From the IMG/VR virus record IMGVR_UViG_2839610755_000009: DNA of 55,878 nt; one strand, given 5' to 3'. The DNA comes from a virus. Lineage: Duplodnaviria > Heunggongvirae > Uroviricota > Caudoviricetes. The translations under genes were made by a program, and so were the position numbers. Below, piece after piece: positions 43,314-50,880 of this stretch. Below the pieces are notes generated by a model. That model was not told the DNA's origin and searched no databases. It saw nothing but the letters and a program-made list of their open reading frames with translations. The first letter of the stretch is position 1, and each line of letters starts with the position of its first letter.

Positions 43314-43730
43314 GTGTCTCAACCACTTTCGGAAATATTGACATGGGATGATGAACAATGGGAGGTATTTGTCCATGATTGGCTTATTGTCTGTAAATCA
43401 GATGATTACCCGTGGAGCGAACGTTTGGGAGGAGCTGGAGATAAAGGTAGAGACGTTGTTGGATATAAATCGGATCCTAACGTAGAAGGTTATTCTTGGG
43501 ATAATTATCAATGCAAACTGTACAAAAAAAGTTTAGGGTTCTCTGATGTTGTAGTTGAGTTTGGAAAACTTATCTATTTTACTCTGAATGGTGATTATCC
43601 CATCCCTCAGAAGTACTTTTTTGTGGCACCCTATGATTTATCTACTACATTTTCTAATTTATTGAAAAATAAAAACGAGCTTAAAAAAGCAGTCCTTGAT
43701 TCATGGGATTCAGCAATTTCAAAAAAATAA
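43314..43730 (+). CDS. cargo ORF A: PD-(D/E)xK-like nuclease domain (candidate effector N-terminus)
   Basis: 138 aa, GTG start 7 nt after AAGGAG; GGAGDKGRDVVGY ... YQCKLY resembles Mrr/NERD-type motif. Confidence 0.5.
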   Translation: MSQPLSEILTWDDEQWEVFVHDWLIVCKSDDYPWSERLGGAGDKGRDVVGYKSDPNVEGYSWDNYQCKLYKKSLGFSDVVVEFGKLIYFTLNGDYPIPQKYFFVAPYDLSTTFSNLLKNKNELKKAVLDSWDSAISKK

Positions 43731-44320
43731 CTAAAAAGATTGATATTCCATTAGATGATGAAATAAAAAAATATATTGAGGATTTTGATTTTAGTATTTT
43801 TTACTCTCTACCCTTATCATTGATTTTAAATGATATTGCAAATACACACCTTTATTTTAAGTACTTTAACGAGCTGTATGTCGTGAGAATCCCTCCAAAT
43901 GAAATTCCAACATACAATTCAAAAAAAGAGTCTGTATATGTTAATGCACGGCTTCAAGCCTATTCAGAGCATGGAAATAAAACTTATAGTTCTTTCTTAG
44001 AGCTTGATGATCCATACAGACGACACTTTAATAATAGTAGAAATGATTTTTATTTTGCATCTTCGCTTGAGGTTTTTGTCCGCGAAGTATTTAAAGATGA
44101 TGTATTCAAAGCATTGAAATGTTACATTTCATCTTCAATTGAACCCGTCTTTTATGAAGACCATAATTATGCATTTATTAGGTGTAATGCAGTCTTGAAG
44201 CAGGCTGTTCTGACACCAATTGCACATTCAGTACTATCAAAAATATGTGAAGCAAATGATAAAAAAGGAATATGCCATCATTTGGTTAATGATGGTGAAG
44301 TAATTTGGACGGTGAGATAA
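43703..44320 (+). CDS. cargo ORF B: probable C-terminal continuation of ORF A
   Basis: 205-aa ORF overlapping A by 28 nt, no SD; joins A by -1 shift at A7 tract. Confidence 0.45.
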   Translation: MGFSNFKKITKKIDIPLDDEIKKYIEDFDFSIFYSLPLSLILNDIANTHLYFKYFNELYVVRIPPNEIPTYNSKKESVYVNARLQAYSEHGNKTYSSFLELDDPYRRHFNNSRNDFYFASSLEVFVREVFKDDVFKALKCYISSSIEPVFYEDHNYAFIRCNAVLKQAVLTPIAHSVLSKICEANDKKGICHHLVNDGEVIWTVR

Positions 44321-44778
44321 TGGTTAGAATTTATAATTCAAGTTTAGAAGTGGCATGTCGAATGGCGAAAGTGCTCGTCGCTATTTATCCTTCTTCATTA
44401 AGCCTTGAACGGCTTATTTGTTTTGATTTTATTTTAGTAAATCTTAAGGATTTTTTACCTGAAGAGATTAGTCTTCATCCTCCAATACCCCGTAGAGATG
44501 CTCAGTTAGCCCTAAAACGAGAGATTGTTTTAGAATCATTGGCTTTGTTGCAAGGCTATGAACTAGCCTCAAAAATTTATACACATCGTGGTTTTGTATA
44601 TAAAGCTTCTGAAAAAACATATGCATTTACAAATTCTCTACATAATGAATATGTTGCGCAGATGGAGCATAATATAAATTTGGTGGTTAAGTTATATAGT
44701 GATATTCCTGATGAGCAGTTGCAATCAATTATAAAAAATAAAATTGGCAAATATGATATGGAATTTAATTATGAATGA
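44320..44778 (+). CDS. cargo ORF C: small helical protein (candidate middle component)
   Basis: 152 aa from ATG overlapping upstream stop (TAATG). Confidence 0.5.
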   Translation: MVRIYNSSLEVACRMAKVLVAIYPSSLSLERLICFDFILVNLKDFLPEEISLHPPIPRRDAQLALKREIVLESLALLQGYELASKIYTHRGFVYKASEKTYAFTNSLHNEYVAQMEHNINLVVKLYSDIPDEQLQSIIKNKIGKYDMEFNYE

Positions 44779-45403
44779 CAATTTTTTTACGTTCAGAAAA
44801 ATAAAGGTAACCGGATTCAATAAATTAGATGCTATAATTGAATTTGGTTCTAAATTGACTATTTTATATGGTGGTTCTGACTCTGGAAAAACATACATAT
44901 ATTATTTGATTCGATATTTATTAGGGAGTGAAAAACTAAAAAATAAAGATATCGATCATGCTCAAGGTTATGATTTAGCCTATCTGGAATTTAATTTTCA
45001 AGGTAGGGTAATGACAATTGAGAGGTCTCTTCAGGATAGCGCCCATTACAGATTATATGATTCGAGCATTGAAAATGTTAGTGAAGCTAATCTGTTGATG
45101 GTTTTTTCCAAAAGTGCTTCGTCTAAAAAGAGTTTTTCATCATACTTTTATGGTAGGTTGAATTTCAAAGAGGCTAAAGTAAGAACAAACTTAAGTAATA
45201 CTCTTCATAAATTTAATCTTAATAATGTTTTTGAATTTTTTTGTATTGATGAATTAAGAGTGTTAACTGAGAAGTCGTTAATTCTTTCTGATATTCCTAG
45301 CGAGGAGACAAAAAGAAAGTCTGAATTTAAATTCCTTTTAACTCAGAGAGATGATACTAACTCCTTAGCAGAAAAACCAAATAAAAAAGCAAGATATTTT
45401 TAA
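44771..45403 (+). CDS. cargo ORF D: ABC/SMC-like ATPase N-terminal head (Walker A)
   Basis: P-loop ILYGGSDSGKTYIY; ATGAATGA overlap with ORF C. Confidence 0.55.
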   Translation: MNDNFFTFRKIKVTGFNKLDAIIEFGSKLTILYGGSDSGKTYIYYLIRYLLGSEKLKNKDIDHAQGYDLAYLEFNFQGRVMTIERSLQDSAHYRLYDSSIENVSEANLLMVFSKSASSKKSFSSYFYGRLNFKEAKVRTNLSNTLHKFNLNNVFEFFCIDELRVLTEKSLILSDIPSEETKRKSEFKFLLTQRDDTNSLAEKPNKKARYF

Positions 45404-45433
45404 AAAAATCAAATTGCAAATATTTATGAGGAA

Positions 45434-46024
45434 TTGAAAGCGCAATTAATTTATCCTGAATATGATCAAGTCATTGTTTCAAGAGAACTTGAGAAAGTAG
45501 AGCAAGATATTGAATCATCGAAAGATATATTGAAAGGTATTGTTGATGCACTTGATGATAAGAAGCAATTATTAAAAGAGTTAAGTGATGAATTATATTC
45601 AATCAGTGACAGGGAAAAATACTTATCATTACTCATTGAAAGATTTAGTCTTCTTAAAGACCAATACTTTATAGATCTACAAAGAATAGATGTTGTATCA
45701 CAGGCGAATTTCTATTTAAATAATTTTGCAGATATTTATTGTGAGTTCTGTAATACACCGCAAAAAAAAGAAAATGAAATATCATATGATGATTGTTTTT
45801 TGTCGTGTAATGCAGAAAAATTGAAAATCAAAAGCCAGCTGAAAGGATTAATTGAATCAATCGGATCTAATGTTCGCGAACATGAATTAATTATGTTAAG
45901 AAAAAATGATGTTAATGAAATTTATCAATCAGAAAAAAGTGATTTTAAGACGTTAGAAGATAAAAATATAAAACAATACATTCATCTCTTGAATCACTTT
46001 ATGAATATAAAGACAATCTTTTAA
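45434..46024 (+). CDS. cargo ORF E: coiled-coil segment of ATPase (in frame with D after a single TAA)
   Basis: 196-aa heptad-rich ORF without ATG start; same frame as D; CEFC...CFLSC cysteine cluster. Confidence 0.45.
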   Translation: MKAQLIYPEYDQVIVSRELEKVEQDIESSKDILKGIVDALDDKKQLLKELSDELYSISDREKYLSLLIERFSLLKDQYFIDLQRIDVVSQANFYLNNFADIYCEFCNTPQKKENEISYDDCFLSCNAEKLKIKSQLKGLIESIGSNVREHELIMLRKNDVNEIYQSEKSDFKTLEDKNIKQYIHLLNHFMNIKTIF

Positions 46025-46590
46025 TGGATCACACAAAACATAGCATTCTATCTTCATTACAAGATAAAGAAGATGATGTTGACGAACTTAAATACTCCGC
46101 CGAGGACTTTGACTCCTTAACAGTAGCTGATTTGTATGATATAGAAATAGCGATGCAAGACTTTTTGAATGATATAAATTTTGAAAATTCTAAAGATAAC
46201 AAAGTGCGATTTGACGAAGATACATATGACTTTAATATCAATGGGAAACGCCGAGGAATGTTTGGTAAAGGTACCCGTGCAGTAATGCATGCTATATTTA
46301 CCATTTGCTTTGCGGAATTTTTATCAAGAAAAGGGAATCCATTCATTGGATTTGTTGTGCTTGATAGTCCATTAGTGACGCACTTTGATAAAGATAGAGG
46401 GGGTTCTCTATCGGATGTTAATAGCGTCAGTCTCAGTGATTCATTTTATCACGCATTAATCAAAAGGGACTATAATTTCCAGATTGTAATTCTTGAGAAT
46501 AAAGGTCCGACGTTCCAAATAAAAATTAATGATGCAAATAAAATCCATAACTTAAATAAGAATGGAAGCTCTGGTTTTTATCCTGTTTAA
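46024..46590 (+). CDS. cargo ORF F: ABC/SMC-like ATPase C-terminal head (Walker B-like)
   Basis: 188 aa; FIGFVVLDSPL hydrophobic-strand-plus-acidic motif; TAATG junction with E. Confidence 0.5.
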   Translation: MDHTKHSILSSLQDKEDDVDELKYSAEDFDSLTVADLYDIEIAMQDFLNDINFENSKDNKVRFDEDTYDFNINGKRRGMFGKGTRAVMHAIFTICFAEFLSRKGNPFIGFVVLDSPLVTHFDKDRGGSLSDVNSVSLSDSFYHALIKRDYNFQIVILENKGPTFQIKINDANKIHNLNKNGSSGFYPV

Positions 46591-46999
46591 TACATTAAAA
46601 ATATAACTGCTAATTGGGGTGCTCGAAATTATATTTCGTTTCGAGCGCTCAGTTCATTTCTAAATAATTTGCAAAATTATTTTGGGTACTTTCGCCTCTA
46701 CACTTCCTTCGGGTGGTTCCACAATAATGGATCTCACCGGCGTTTGATATTTTATAATCTAACCCCTTAGCGCGCGCAGCCCCCCACGCCTGCTCGCTTC
46801 GCTTAACAGACTGGTTTTCATGCATTCCGCAAATCGTCTCAGAAGCCACCACACAAGGGCTTTCGCGTCAAAAATGGTGCATGAGAATCATGCGTTTTCA
46901 TGCGCTATAGACATGCACTCATGCGCTCTCAGGCCAGCCAGGGAAAAGGCGTAAAAAATCCCAGTACTGGACCGGGATTACGTGGGCTTTTTTTGCTAA

Positions 47000-47272
47000 T
47001 CAGACAGGAATTTGCTGACGGCTTGACAGCTTTGACGCGGAGCCATAGCGATTGAGAGTTTGCTGTTGTTTTTCCGGCATTTGTGCTTTCTCTGATTCCT
47101 GTTCATTGCGCCGGGGCTTCATGATTATCGTATCCACACTTTCCAGTGCGGTAAATGTGTAGGAACATTCAAGATTCTGGCACTGATACCATGAGCGTTT
47201 AACCGATGGTGCTTCATAGGCGGAGGTTCTGGCGTGTGCCGTCGTACCGCATTCGGGACATTTAAGTGCCAT
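47000..47272 (-). CDS. Ogr/Delta-type zinc-finger late-gene activator
   Basis: 90 aa; CPECGTTAHARTS...YQCQNLECSYTF matches Ogr/Delta zinc finger. Confidence 0.85.
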   Translation of the reverse strand: MALKCPECGTTAHARTSAYEAPSVKRSWYQCQNLECSYTFTALESVDTIIMKPRRNEQESEKAQMPEKQQQTLNRYGSASKLSSRQQIPV

Positions 47273-47277
47273 TAATA

Positions 47278-47829
47278 TTACTCCTGCATGCCGTTAATGT
47301 AATCCAGACGTTGCTGAAAGCGCAGTTGTTGTGCAGGGGTGTAAGAGCTCTGGCAATCACGAACCATCATGGGGTCAGGCATCACACCGGATTCATCCAG
47401 AATCATACGATAATCCCCGGCAATTTCAGGCGGTGTTATTGCCAGCTGGCGAACCAGAGCATTGCGTAATATACGGGACGCAACGTCAACCCCTCCGCGC
47501 CCCTTCAGGAACGGAGCCAGTGCAGATGTCAGGGCTGCTCCATTCGCCTGCATAAAATTGCTGAGAGCGTCTTCTGTGCAGGCCTCCATCAGTTGATGCT
47601 GCGAGTAAATGCATTCGCGCGCAGCACAGTTAATTTGCCATTTCAGCACATCCAGATGTTCCCGCTGTAATTCGAGCTGTCGAGCATAATCTGCTGGTTT
47701 TTCCATGGCAGTGAGGAGTGATTCTATCTGTTGTTCAACGGCTTTTCGGCTCTCACTATGTCCAGCCCACAGAATACGGGCATTTCTAAAACTGATAAGC
47801 GCTTGGTCTGGAGTGACTCGGGCCATCAT
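47278..47829 (-). CDS. Psu-like (polarity suppression) protein
   Basis: 183 aa, P4 psu position and size. Confidence 0.65.
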   Translation of the reverse strand: MMARVTPDQALISFRNARILWAGHSESRKAVEQQIESLLTAMEKPADYARQLELQREHLDVLKWQINCAARECIYSQHQLMEACTEDALSNFMQANGAALTSALAPFLKGRGGVDVASRILRNALVRQLAITPPEIAGDYRMILDESGVMPDPMMVRDCQSSYTPAQQLRFQQRLDYINGMQE

Positions 47830-48578
47830 ACTGCTTTCTCCTTCTCAGCACGTTCCTGACGAACCTTCATTTTATGCATAGCTGCTGGAGAGAGTTTATT
47901 ACTGAAATCCAGACGGGCCGCATAATCCGGGGCAACTCCCGCCAGTTTAAACACGGGGTCCTGTTCGGGCATCGCATCGTTAGTCAGAGCCGGTCTGGTG
48001 ATATGTTTATGAATAAAATCTTTCAGCAGTGTGTCCGGGTCATTAACTGAATGCACCACACCGACAACTGCGCTGGCTTCCCTGCCCATTGTTGATTTGA
48101 GCAGGCTTAGTGTCTGGATTAGTGCTTTTCCATGCGACTGCATAAAATCTTCCCAGATTTGTTTTGCGCGAATACCCACAAGGGTGTCGTGCGCGTGGAT
48201 ATACTTTCCGGCTAATTCCGCAGCCTCCTGCGGCAAAAGTGCATTTTCGCTTTCCTGAGCCGCCAGCAGCTCATCAAAATCCTCAAGCGTTTCTCGTCCC
48301 AGCGCAATTTCCGTGCGCAGTTTTTTCATTTCCTTTGAGACTACGCCCTGACTTTCACGAAATAGCGTGCGCCACTCCTCATTCAGGGCGTTCGTCGTGG
48401 CTTCCATTTCAGCGCGGCGCTGGCGGATTGTCGCAATATTATCCGCTGCCGCTTTTTGCTGACGACGTGCTTCAAGCCATGCAGATTTGGTGGCATTCAC
48501 TTTCTCAAGCGCCTGTTGCGTCGAAACAGGGATAGAAATTTCAACGATCGGGTTATTGTTCTGTTCTGGGATTGTCAT
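47826..48578 (-). CDS. Sid-like capsid size determination protein
   Basis: 250-aa helical protein upstream of psu in the same operon. Confidence 0.55.
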   Translation of the reverse strand: MTIPEQNNNPIVEISIPVSTQQALEKVNATKSAWLEARRQQKAAADNIATIRQRRAEMEATTNALNEEWRTLFRESQGVVSKEMKKLRTEIALGRETLEDFDELLAAQESENALLPQEAAELAGKYIHAHDTLVGIRAKQIWEDFMQSHGKALIQTLSLLKSTMGREASAVVGVVHSVNDPDTLLKDFIHKHITRPALTNDAMPEQDPVFKLAGVAPDYAARLDFSNKLSPAAMHKMKVRQERAEKEKAV

Positions 48579-49511
48579 GTCAGCACCTAGTGGTTTGTCG
48601 TGGTGTCAATTGTGCTGTGATGCATACAAAGCTGCCATTGAACGCCATTGTGCGAGCGACAAGACAAAGACTGAACCGCCCCGGACCTCTTTTGGCTAGC
48701 CAGAAAAGGCCTCGTTTAACTAAGGCTGTTTCAGACTTACCTTAACTATTCACTACTATTCACTTAGGTAAAAAAAATAGGTAATACAGAAGGTTATAAG
48801 GTGAAGGGTTGGCATGGCAGTATTCATCGACTGTTCATAACTGTTCACATGGGAATAAAATTATTTATGGTATTTTTTCATAATGGGTGGTTTTTTTATT
48901 CCTCGTAGCTATTTGTTTTTTGCTCCTCACCACTATTCACCCTTATTCAGGAGTATTCAACAGGCACATAAATAGACTGCATGTTTTTGCCGGGGAATAA
49001 CATTTTCGCCTCTGGCCATGGTGTTGCATTTCATACTGATTTTTATAAAACTAGATCTGTCCGGTTCTTTATGGATTCATTCGGATATATTTTACGATTT
49101 AAGGTGATGTTATTTAATATCAAGGTTTTTATGCAGGCCCAATGTTTATAAGTTGGATGCGATTCAAAAATATGCCCGGAAATTGGGGCCTGCAATGCAA
49201 GGCCTCGTGTAGAAGTTGTACTGCCTTGCTGTATTGGCGGTGGGGTTAGCACTATCAGGTGCAATGACCCATAGGATAGTAAACCCTGGGTGAATGGTAG
49301 TTCCTATTAATGCTCCTGTATTTATAGTCCGCAGGCATGGTATTTATTATGTCATTTTATATGGTTTAATCGGGCTTTAAATTCCATAAAATCAATATGT
49401 GACGCTAAATAAAAAATGCGTGCGCAGGTGGTTTATATACACATAATAAGGAACTACCTGAACCCGGATAAATTCATCCGGACTGTTGTGGAAATTAAAG
49501 AGGGTAGATAA

Positions 49512-49772: not shown

Positions 49773-49900
49773 TGATACCTGCATACATTAAATACCTTTA
49801 TTCTGGCTTGCTTACTGTCGTCATTTCCAGGTATAGTTTTTCCGCTGTCGCAAAATCGGCAGCCGGAATTGGCGTTCCGTATAACTTATTGGCGACAATT

Positions 49901-49922
49901 GACGCCCCTTGCGTCTTTTTTT
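49901..49922 (+). terminator. rho-independent terminator after alpA
   Basis: GACGC-CCCTT-GCGTC hairpin followed by T7. Confidence 0.65.
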
Positions 49923-49949
49923 ACGTCGTAGCTCAGGCACAACCATTTT

Positions 49950-50110
49950 CAGGGCTGTGGTGTTTATGCTTACACCATGGTTCTATCGAGATAATGGTAG
50001 TCCGGGCGGGGCAGCCTTCGGGCTGGCCGGTTTCCAATAAGGCCGGTTACGCCAACCCCGTTCGGGCTGCCACCAGTGAAATTGGCGTTTCCGGTGGTAG
50101 CAATAACCGC
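49950..50110 (+). ncRNA. candidate structured RNA (P4 CI/C4-like immunity RNA region)
   Basis: ORF-poor stretch with consecutive hairpins (GCAGCCTTCGGGCTGGC, CCGGTTTCCAATAAGGCCGG, GCTGCCACCAG...CCGGTGGTAGC). Confidence 0.3.
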
Positions 50111-50544: not shown

Positions 50545-50867
50545 TGATATGCTGTGAATCTCTTCTGGCACTTCGTGCCGCTCTGTATCGCCGTGCCGTT
50601 GCCTGTGCCTGGCTGGCTCTAAGCAATCATCAGGAACGTTATTCCGGCCTGACGCTCGCTGAACTTGAAGATGCCATAGCCCGCGAGCTGGAAGGGTTCT
50701 ATCTGCGCCAGCATGGGCAGCAAAGAGGGCTGGAAATTGCCTGCGCGTTGCTTTCGGATCTGATGGAGTCGGGGCCGCTTAAAGCCTGTCCGGTTCTCTC
50801 ACTGCTCGGAATGACGGTCATGGATGAACTTTGTTCCCGTCACCTCAACAAACCAGCGCTGCACTAA
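50544..50867 (+). CDS. hypothetical protein
   Basis: 107 aa, ATGA coupling, precedes primase. Confidence 0.45.
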
Positions 50868-50880
50868 GGAGGGCCGCACA

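Follow-up and report, generated by a model that had tools for sequence, protein, structure and literature searches.

A cluster of TCATGC(G/A) repeats lies beside a GC-rich stretch in a noncoding interval of a P4-like element of Escherichia coli O157:H7, which raises the question of what this interval does. The original prediction noted that P4-type elements carry cos at this position and offered two readings, a satellite packaging site or a regulatory array. The packaging reading is supported by synteny with P4 and by homology to the cos of helper phages. From sequence comparison we put at about 85% the probability that the P4-like satellite prophage Sp2 has its cos (cohesive-end packaging) site at positions 46770-46925 of the window (the whole 55,878-nt stretch of DNA that was analysed). 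The GC-rich run is best read as the cohesive-end or cleavage core, and the TCATGC repeats as flanking recognition-type motifs that are common with helper phages. Direct support comes from position, homology, conserved geometry, purifying conservation in the satellite lineage and a sharp border with the variable cargo. A cos between psu and the int-proximal hotspot of P4-like satellites is already published; the four-site GCAT geometry, the two cos flavours of E. coli helpers and the satellite-only core of a common lineage may be new.

Gene order around the repeat cluster

The DNA of the window comes from the E. coli O157:H7 chromosome. Over 13.8 kb around the cos region it differs by 1 base from strain Sakai, in which the counterpart is annotated as "prophage Sp2, P4-like phage" (NC_002695.2 310628-323514). 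The P4-like satellite core set is complete in Sp2 (int, psu, delta/ogr, sid, alpha primase and RNA-based immunity, by Pfam, Rfam and annotation), and int, psu, sid, ogr and alpha are full length. The cargo ATPase is split, and is a pseudogene in the Sakai annotation. Gene order is that of integrated P4, the psu/delta order excepted. The main features on either side of the repeat cluster are:

42078-43310, + strand: integrase gene (ORF map, Pfam integrase domain)
43314-46590, + strand: ABC-three-component (ABC-3C) cargo cassette, the last cargo ORF stopping at 46590
46617-46650, + strand: strong hairpin that follows the final cargo ORF and probably acts as its terminator; outside cos (-19.4 kcal/mol, z = -4.25)
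46651..46766: AT-rich spacer, part of the variable cargo rather than of the cos module, covered only by 310 O157-type records
46927..46952, - strand: conserved block CGCCTTTTCCCTGGCTGGCCTGAGAG in the interval from terminator to array, 80-100% conserved in satellite junctions
46951..46979, - strand: intrinsic terminator of the sid-psu-ogr operon, adjoining cos but separate from it (9-bp stem AAUCCCGGU/ACUGGGAUU plus U-run, from the fold)
47000-47272, - strand: Ogr/Delta zinc-finger gene, 90-aa protein (Pfam Ogr_Delta)
47278-47829, - strand: psu (Pfam Psu)
47826-48578, - strand: sid
49831-50077: C4/isrK-type RNA region (Rfam C4 and isrK)
50824-53214: alpha primase

The sid/psu/delta late operon thus ends on one side of the candidate site, and the int-proximal accessory hotspot lies on the other. 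RefSeq annotates no gene between the last cargo ORF and the ogr/delta-like gene in either O157 record. The region had been described and placed accurately as noncoding DNA between the cargo cassette and ogr/psu. Three Rfam families were found in the Sp2 element (C4, isrK and a1b1), all outside 46600-47000. Block CGCCTTTTCCCTGGCTGGCCTGAGAG had no counterpart in the helper cos comparison. The palindrome of the sid-psu-ogr terminator reads on the + strand too.

We next examined the repeats themselves. The four TCATGC(G/A) copies reported near 46815..46929 are real, starting at 46818, 46888, 46898 and 46919 on the + strand, and so is the GC-rich stretch beside them, GCGCGCGCAGCCCCCCACGCC at 46770-46790. 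An inverted TCATGCR copy is found on the - strand at 46878-46884, and a sixth, degenerate copy (CATGC) at 46912. Across the whole window the 7-mer TCATGCR is not enriched (20 found vs 24.5 expected), and the repeat signal is therefore purely local: 5 copies fall in 110 nt (4 on the + strand and 1 inverted within 108 nt), while in 300 first-order Markov simulations of the window the largest cluster held 3 copies and 0/300 reached 4. When the shorter pentamers CATGC/GCATG were counted, the cluster was not significant against simulations, because palindromic overlaps of the GCATGC type inflate clusters. The motif is better written for the - strand, as GCATG(A).

Homology to helper cos regions and the geometry of the GCAT motifs

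Alignment of the P4 psu-cos-gop junction showed it to be collinear with the - strand of 46770-46850, with 66% identity over 79 nt (P4 ...TGCATTAAAACCGCCCCGCAAAGCGGGCG^GGCGAGGCGGGGAAAGCAC^CGCGCGC, window ...TGCATGAAAACCAGTCTGTTAAGCGAAGCGAGCAGGCGTGGGGGGCTGCGCGCGC; here and below, ^ marks a nick). We then built an nhmmer profile from six helper cos regions only (P2, 186, Fels-2, 500465-1, YpMLG42 and KpVIM1), with no satellite included. It gave a single match in the 55,878 nt, at 46919-46774 on the - strand (E = 3.7e-12, envelope 46927-46770), which spans profile positions 10-159 of 161; similarity to known cos sites, whose absence would have counted against the packaging reading, is thus present. 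A helper profile of the core only found the same place as its single match in the window (E = 3.6e-5). The match includes the ~55 bp conserved core of the family, TGCAT.AAAACC ... AAGCGGGCR followed by a GC-rich cohesive segment and YGCGCGC. At E <= 1e-5, neither the cos region nor 46760-48600 had a BLAST match among 50,697 phage records. With a 60-nt core query at E <= 10, matches were found in Escherichia phage 500465-1, Klebsiella ST147-VIM1phi7.1 and Burkholderia P2-like phages (Peduoviridae), all of them in the noncoding gap from DinI/hotspot genes to the portal gene, which is the P2-like cos location.

The reference ends are mapped ones. The P2, 186 and P4 records start at cos, and both termini of the P4 record are its cohesive ends. 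The Fels-2-type 19-mer GGCGTGGCGGGGATACGAG was mapped by read-start analysis of an E. coli HS prophage (PMC8008629 Table S4). Published work describes cos as the sole region homologous between P2 and P4, and the P4-like defence hotspot as directly adjoining cos (PMC9122126). A 55-bp conserved cos core in the P2 family is attributed to Ziermann and Calendar (1990) in two later papers (PMC5694545, PMC9594776). P4 cos fragments suffice for helper-dependent plasmid transduction, and flanks beyond the 55-bp core influence the efficiency of cosmid transduction (PMC9594776).

On the - strand, the probable cos site divides into the following parts:

46770..46925, - strand: whole putative cos module; from the ogr side to the cargo, a distal GCATG array, a spacer, the proximal TGCATGAAAACC and the GC-rich candidate cleavage core
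46920..46924, - strand: additional GCATG, the fourth, lying 8 nt upstream of the array (the copy at 46919 above), conserved in the satellite lineage
46889..46916, - strand: distal triple GCATG array (46916-46912, 46903-46899 and 46893-46889; start-to-start 13 then 10 nt)
46878..46884, + strand: inverted GCATGA copy, forming with 46888-46893 the palindrome GCATGA-TTC-TCATGC
46869..46874, - strand: TTTTTG run downstream of the distal array
46813..46824, - strand: proximal site TGCATGAAAACC (the TCATGCA copy at 46818 above), invariant in 35 satellite junctions
46770..46807, - strand: GC-rich cosN-like core GTTAAGCGAAGCGAGCAGGCGTGGGGGGCTGCGCGCGC, aligning with P4/P2/Fels-2 AAGCGGGC(G/A)^GGCG.GGCGGGG...^YGCGCGC

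The TCATGC repeats are the reverse complement of the GCAT(G) motifs of the helpers. In 186, P4, Fels-2, Ec500465-1, YpMLG42 and KpVIM1 these motifs stand at exactly -123, -110, -100 and -28 from the mapped top-strand nick, and P2 has the same arrangement except for -122. The window likewise carries three distal GCAT copies with 13/10-nt spacing and one proximal copy on the late-operon side; this criterion of geometry was derived in the present analysis and not from the literature. The T-run and then a ~45-nt spacer separate the distal array from the proximal TGCATGAAAACC, and a comparable T-run is found in Fels-2 type, KpVIM1, P4 (TTTTCTG) and P2 (CTTTTGAC). The inverted GCATGA copy was absent from the helpers compared and is specific to the satellite lineage.

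The motifs are also conserved among the helpers. GCAT at -28 was present in 69/69 unique P2-type helper junctions among the matches listed, and the distal pair YGCAT-N5-HGCRT was kept in 47 of these 69 (vs 0.03 in shuffles), the remaining 22 being mostly one-base variants such as TGAAT or TGCAC. The P2-type junctions have unrelated sequence from about -95 to -40 and upstream of about -125, yet the GCAT pair at -110/-100 survives between them. In 115 unique Fels-2-type junctions among the matches listed, the conserved cassette runs from the first TGCATG to CGCGCGC, and both flanks are variable. TGCAT(T/G)AAAACC precedes the core in the listed Fels-2-type junctions, in P4 and in 186. A full-text search found no published description of TGCAT with cos and terminase (Ziermann and Calendar, 1990, and the P2 review of Christie and Calendar lay outside this search).

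Compared with known systems, the locus resembles P4 cos (NC_001609) in its position (the late operon's last gene precedes it, and the non-essential cargo region and int follow) and in its parts: GCAT at -123/-110/-100, TGCAT.AAAACC at -28, a GC-rich core and a CGCGCGC flank. It differs in that P4 has the exact P2 19-mer GGCGAGGCGGGGAAAGCAC, which the window does not, and in that the distal array of P4 is of the 186/P2 type whereas that of the window is of the Fels-2 type. P4 also has the order sid-delta-psu with a double-length delta, whereas the window has sid-psu-ogr-like with a 90-aa protein. Overall identity to P4 is 61-63%, and 60-64% for the P2/186/P4 type as a group. With P2 and 186 the window has in common the family architecture, the GCAT geometry, the left-nick context AAGCGGGC(G/A)^GGCG and a defence hotspot beside cos, but the 19-mer is another one. 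The side of the variable hotspot differs as well: it lies on the GCAT-array side in P2-type prophages (upstream of about -125) and across the core in the satellite and the Fels-2 type.

The closest sequence match is the Fels-2-type cos (Fels-2, 500465-1, E. coli HS prophage and Yersinia vB_YpM_MLG42), at 67-71%. Its distal array, GTGCATGTCTATGC(C/T)GCATGA.AT.GCATGAT, compares with GTGCATGTCTATAGCGCATGAAAACGCATGAT in the window, and the two are identical in GTGCATGAAAACCA, in AAGCGGGCA^GGCGTG and in the CGCGCGC flank, directly after which variable cargo starts in both. The extra GCAT of Fels-2 at -133 is analogous to the fourth GCATG of the window. The distance from distal to proximal motifs is 70 nt in the window and 72 nt in the Fels-2 type. 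In contrast, the window has AAGCG duplicated before the core, a core that is 5 nt shorter (GGGGCTG vs GGCGGGGATACGAG), and no spacer hairpin GGCCCGCCAG..CTGGCGGGC.

The GC-rich core and the copy in O157

Among 35 unique satellite junctions, every GCATG and TGCATGAAAACC were invariant and the core was invariant or nearly so, while adjacent bases varied. Conservation collapsed within ~10 nt after GGGGCTG, where the differing cargos start, and this border at variable defence cargo agrees with the published pattern of P4-like satellites. The core of the lineage reads AAGCGAAGCG(G/A)GCAGGCGKGSGGGGCTGCGCGCGC, or in the extended reading AAGCGAAGCG(G/A)GCA GGCG(T/G)G(C/G)GGGGC(T/A)G CGCGCGC, and in the window it is arranged as AAGCGAAGCGAGCA GGCGTGGGGGGCTG CGCGCGC on the - strand.

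The core departs from the helpers at the 19-mer. The P2/P4 19-mer GGCGAGGCGGGGAAAGCAC is absent from the window at up to 3 mismatches, and the window holds no 19-mer identical or near-identical to that of a helper (P2/P4 GGCGAGGCGGGGAAAGCAC, 186 GGCGTGGCGGGGAAAGCAT or Fels-2 type GGCGTGGCGGGGATACGAG); the best registers of its core against the P2 and Fels-2 19-mers gave 10-13/19 identities. Identity of the 19-mer marks the P4-P2 pair rather than the family, since the 19-mers of the helpers themselves differ in their 3' halves. Relative to the helpers, the satellite core has 5 nt more before GGCG (tandem AAGCG) and 5 nt fewer after it. The two changes compensate, and P4 and the window therefore have the same 36 nt from TGCATGAAAACC to CGCGCGC. 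A Burkholderia P2-like phage has the same spacing as the satellites, and the arrangement of the core is therefore not unique to satellites.

As a result of the 5-nt shift two nick registers are possible. We infer the following candidates for the cohesive segment, 5 nt apart:

46772..46790, - strand: register A, GGCGTGGGGGGCTGCGCGC if the overhang is 19 nt; top-strand nick after GCGAGCA, at 46791/46790
46777..46795, - strand: register B, GAGCAGGCGTGGGGGGCTG; nicks at 46796/46795 and 46777/46776

Register A would have the best local homology: GCGGGCA^GGCG is exactly what 186 and Fels-2 have around their left nick. Register B would preserve spacing: its nick would lie 28 nt from the proximal GCAT, and its segment would be directly followed by CGCGCGC as in P4/Fels-2. 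GCAT is at -28 in all helpers compared and in register B.

We considered whether the repeats serve some other purpose. Phased direct repeats with the palindrome GCATGA-TTC-TCATGC are typical of protein-binding sites, and the region sits between two convergent transcription units, as might be expected of a transcriptional regulatory array that controls the cargo or sid-psu-ogr and is unrelated to packaging; the palindrome plus T-run even scores as a weak terminator on the - strand. However, both flanking operons have strong terminators of their own, and the promoter scan found 0 sigma-70-like sites in 46400-47400. Helpers with quite different neighbouring genes (DinI, old/tin, TIR, portal) have these motifs too, with identical spacing and at an identical distance from mapped ends, and the motifs mark the edge of a conserved cos cassette. 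This reading, the second half of the original prediction, is accordingly disfavoured and in our view very unlikely. Equally little else points to a separate function: there is no Rfam family in 46600-47000, and the RNA structure of the GCATG array is unremarkable (z = -0.6). As a check on an iteron or origin reading, TGTTCACC, which we take to be the P4 ori repeat, was sought in 46650-47000 and has 0 copies there, a result of little weight since a search that allows one mismatch is not specific. It is hardly credible that the repeats cluster by chance or belong to a short coding sequence that annotation missed: ORFs of 44-67 aa do overlap the cos region (46820-46954 on the + strand, 46649-46852 on the - strand) and the loose pentamer count was not significant, but the 7-mer cluster exceeds all 300 simulations, a profile from unrelated phages matches at the E-value given above, no gene is annotated here in RefSeq, and a 1-nt insertion inside the proximal site region of satellite NIPH17 would break the reading frame.

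A further alternative accepts that the O157 Sp2 sequence is cos by descent and holds that it is a dead relic, no longer cut or packaged on account of a private substitution, the failure to excise and the want of a compatible helper. The O157 copy has a private G to A change (GCGAGCA) near the presumed nick, where conservation among satellites and helpers is at least 90%, and reads GTGGGGGG where most satellite copies have GKGCGGGG. Circularisation, replication and packaging of Sp2 were all scored negative in Sakai, its Xis column is given as '-', and Sp13, the only P2-like prophage of that strain, is without morphogenesis (head) genes (PMC2669165). The cargo ATPase is a pseudogene, as noted above, and the int region is disrupted by IS1203 in some O157 strains. 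Against a relic, the family consensus is kept unchanged in every GCATG motif, in the proximal site and in the remainder of the core, the five satellite genes are full length, and Burkholderia P2-like cos tolerates changes at the very position of the O157 G to A (AAGTCCGCA). The Sakai experiments on Sp2 were run without helper infection, and some O157:H7 strains, among them Rafaela_II, carry alongside Sp2 a complete-looking P2-like prophage (portal, terminase and capsid genes, canonical P2-type cos). We regard loss of function as improbable, though less so than the other two alternatives, and a cos site of the P4-like satellite remains the preferred reading. Ordinary satellite biology would then account for a noncoding feature that stands out in the genome of a much-studied pathogen.

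Proposed packaging route and distribution of the cos types

If the locus is cos, a P2-type helper would supply the late proteins and the satellite circle would be recognised by the helper terminase, made up of the small subunit gpM and the large subunit gpP; the P2 record annotates both gpP and gpM as terminase subunits. Recognition would take place via the phased GCAT sites on the ogr side, in a role like that of lambda cosB. Staggered nicks in the two strands of the GC-rich core (a cosN-like role) would give 5' cohesive ends. The satellite DNA would then be packaged into Sid-reduced capsids, and after injection it would re-circularise through the cohesive ends.

Lambda cos consists of the nicking site cosN and of cosB, whose phased R-sites are bound by the small terminase gpNu1. 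The likeness to the window is functional only (a nicking core with short phased repeats on one side), with no sequence similarity, and the overhangs differ in length (P2 family 19 nt, lambda 12 nt). By this analogy the GCAT motifs are obvious candidate terminase recognition sites, and the protein that would bind them we infer in the same way; no protein-DNA binding data for them were found in the literature. The geometry -123/-110/-100/-28, common to P2, 186, P4 and Fels-2-type phages, offers a concrete candidate terminase recognition site for the family. Cos-carrying phage-inducible chromosomal islands of the SaPIbov5 type are satellites with a copy of the helper cos for packaging by the helper terminase, but those elements, their helpers and their sequences are unrelated to the present ones (PMC5052747).

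One possible, rather doubtful, reading of the divergent core is that, provided these satellites are packaged, terminase places the nicks by measuring from the GCAT sites and CGCGCGC instead of reading the 19-mer, or else that the ends of the satellite differ from those of the helper in sequence or length. If true, recognition motifs that are matched while the cut site diverges would be a satellite-specific packaging solution, and one that could set helper range; the distal array looks Fels-2-like rather than P2-like.

Finally, we surveyed the distribution of the satellite and helper cos types. Matches to the cos region were found in 846/5,426 complete E. coli genomes (~15%). Only the O157-type records (310) cover the full 421 nt, and 537 others match from ~46761-46774 to the ogr gene. 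These match borders indicate that the conserved backbone starts at the GC-rich run and that the sequence to its left is strain-specific cargo, which fixes the border between backbone and exchangeable defence cargo at ~46766-46776. In the same 5,426 genomes the core was found at 824 places, no more than the 880 of the satellite block.

No enteric helper with the satellite core was found in the INPHARED phage collection or in the 5,426 complete E. coli genomes, and the core was absent from 80 P2-type and 120 Fels-2-type loci among the matches listed. A pattern search of IMG/VR for it gave only satellites and GC-rich chance matches. The very common satellite lineage therefore has a cut-site core that matches no sampled helper. 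Among the matches listed, the canonical 19-mer was present in 80/80 IMG/VR prophages that have a P2-like portal, and among the 120 listed loci with the Fels-2 19-mer, 86 encode portal and 0 encode psu or sid. E. coli helpers have cos of two flavours at least, the P2 type and the Fels-2 type, and satellite lineages resemble one or the other. The closer sequence, the near-identical distal array and GTGCATGAAAACCA, together with the genome counts (Fels-2-type cos in 855/5,426 E. coli genomes, P4-type satellite cos region in 1,068), suggest that this satellite lineage may be tuned to Fels-2-type helpers. The GCAT geometry, the cos flavours and the satellite core bear on helper-satellite mobilisation and on the design of P2/P4-based cosmids. 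Among the matches listed, a satellite and a helper shared one IMG genome id in a single case, 2751185936.

Hotspot side and conserved sequence at the cos junctions

Among the loci listed, the two helper types differ in the side of the cos core on which the variable hotspot is placed. It is found upstream of the GCAT array in the P2-type prophages (L035-L114), whereas in the Fels-2-type phages (L143-L262), and also in the satellites, it follows directly after CGCGCGC. On the other side of the satellite site, a 26-nt block at window 46927-46952 (- strand, CGCCTTTTCCCTGGCTGGCCTGAGAG) is flanked by the ogr terminator and the GCATG array. The block is 80-100% conserved across the satellite junctions, and no counterpart was present in the helper phages compared.

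The ABC-3C cargo in Sp2 and in a helper-type prophage

The Sp2 cargo (window 43314-46590) is an ABC-three-component (ABC-3C) system, identified by Pfam CTD6 and MC2, in which the ABC ATPase is split into three ORFs:

44744-45403, first ATPase ORF
45434-46024, second ATPase ORF, separated from the first by an in-frame stop
46024-46590, third ATPase ORF, preceded by a frame change

The ATPase is annotated as a pseudogene in strain Sakai (ECs_0293), and the PGAP annotation of another O157 strain gives three hypothetical proteins for the same region. A P2-like prophage of O157:H7 strain Rafaela_II (L142, NZ_CP076230.1 1930014-1942074) also carries an ABC-3C system in its cos-adjacent hotspot (locus 2217-5906), consisting of middle component 4 and an intact 656-aa ATPase. 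Since Sp2 is present in the Rafaela_II genome as well, a helper-type phage and a satellite in one genome carry differing versions of this defence family, each beside its own cos.

Variant and disrupted Sp2 elements

In a variant of this O157-type element (L003, IMGVR_UViG_2923272612_000005, 3100-3245), the proximal cos half is abutted by the alpha primase gene (718-3108, -). Its match to the window starts only at AAAATTTGCGGAATGCATGAAAACC, and the distal GCATG array, ogr, psu and sid appear to have been deleted or rearranged. The full-length Sp2 integrase (window 42078-43310) is retained in the window and in Sakai, whereas in O157:H7 strain PV15-279 (L002, NZ_AP018488.1, locus 3949-5707) the Sp2 integrase and the Sp1 region have given way to a truncated integrase and a copy of IS1203 immediately upstream of the cargo. 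In some O157 lineages, therefore, Sp2 is immobilised.

RNA immunity region and octamer content

Between sid and the primase operon, window 49831-50077 contains the following Rfam matches:

C4 antisense RNA, 84 bits
isrK, 72 bits
a1b1 target, slightly under the threshold

The stretch corresponds to the P4-type RNA immunity region. In the whole window, 68 octamers matched TGTTCACC with at most one mismatch (45.8 expected), a count above every one of 100 shuffles. They were scattered across the chromosomal part of the window with no clustering in the satellite, and the excess may be a codon-usage effect.
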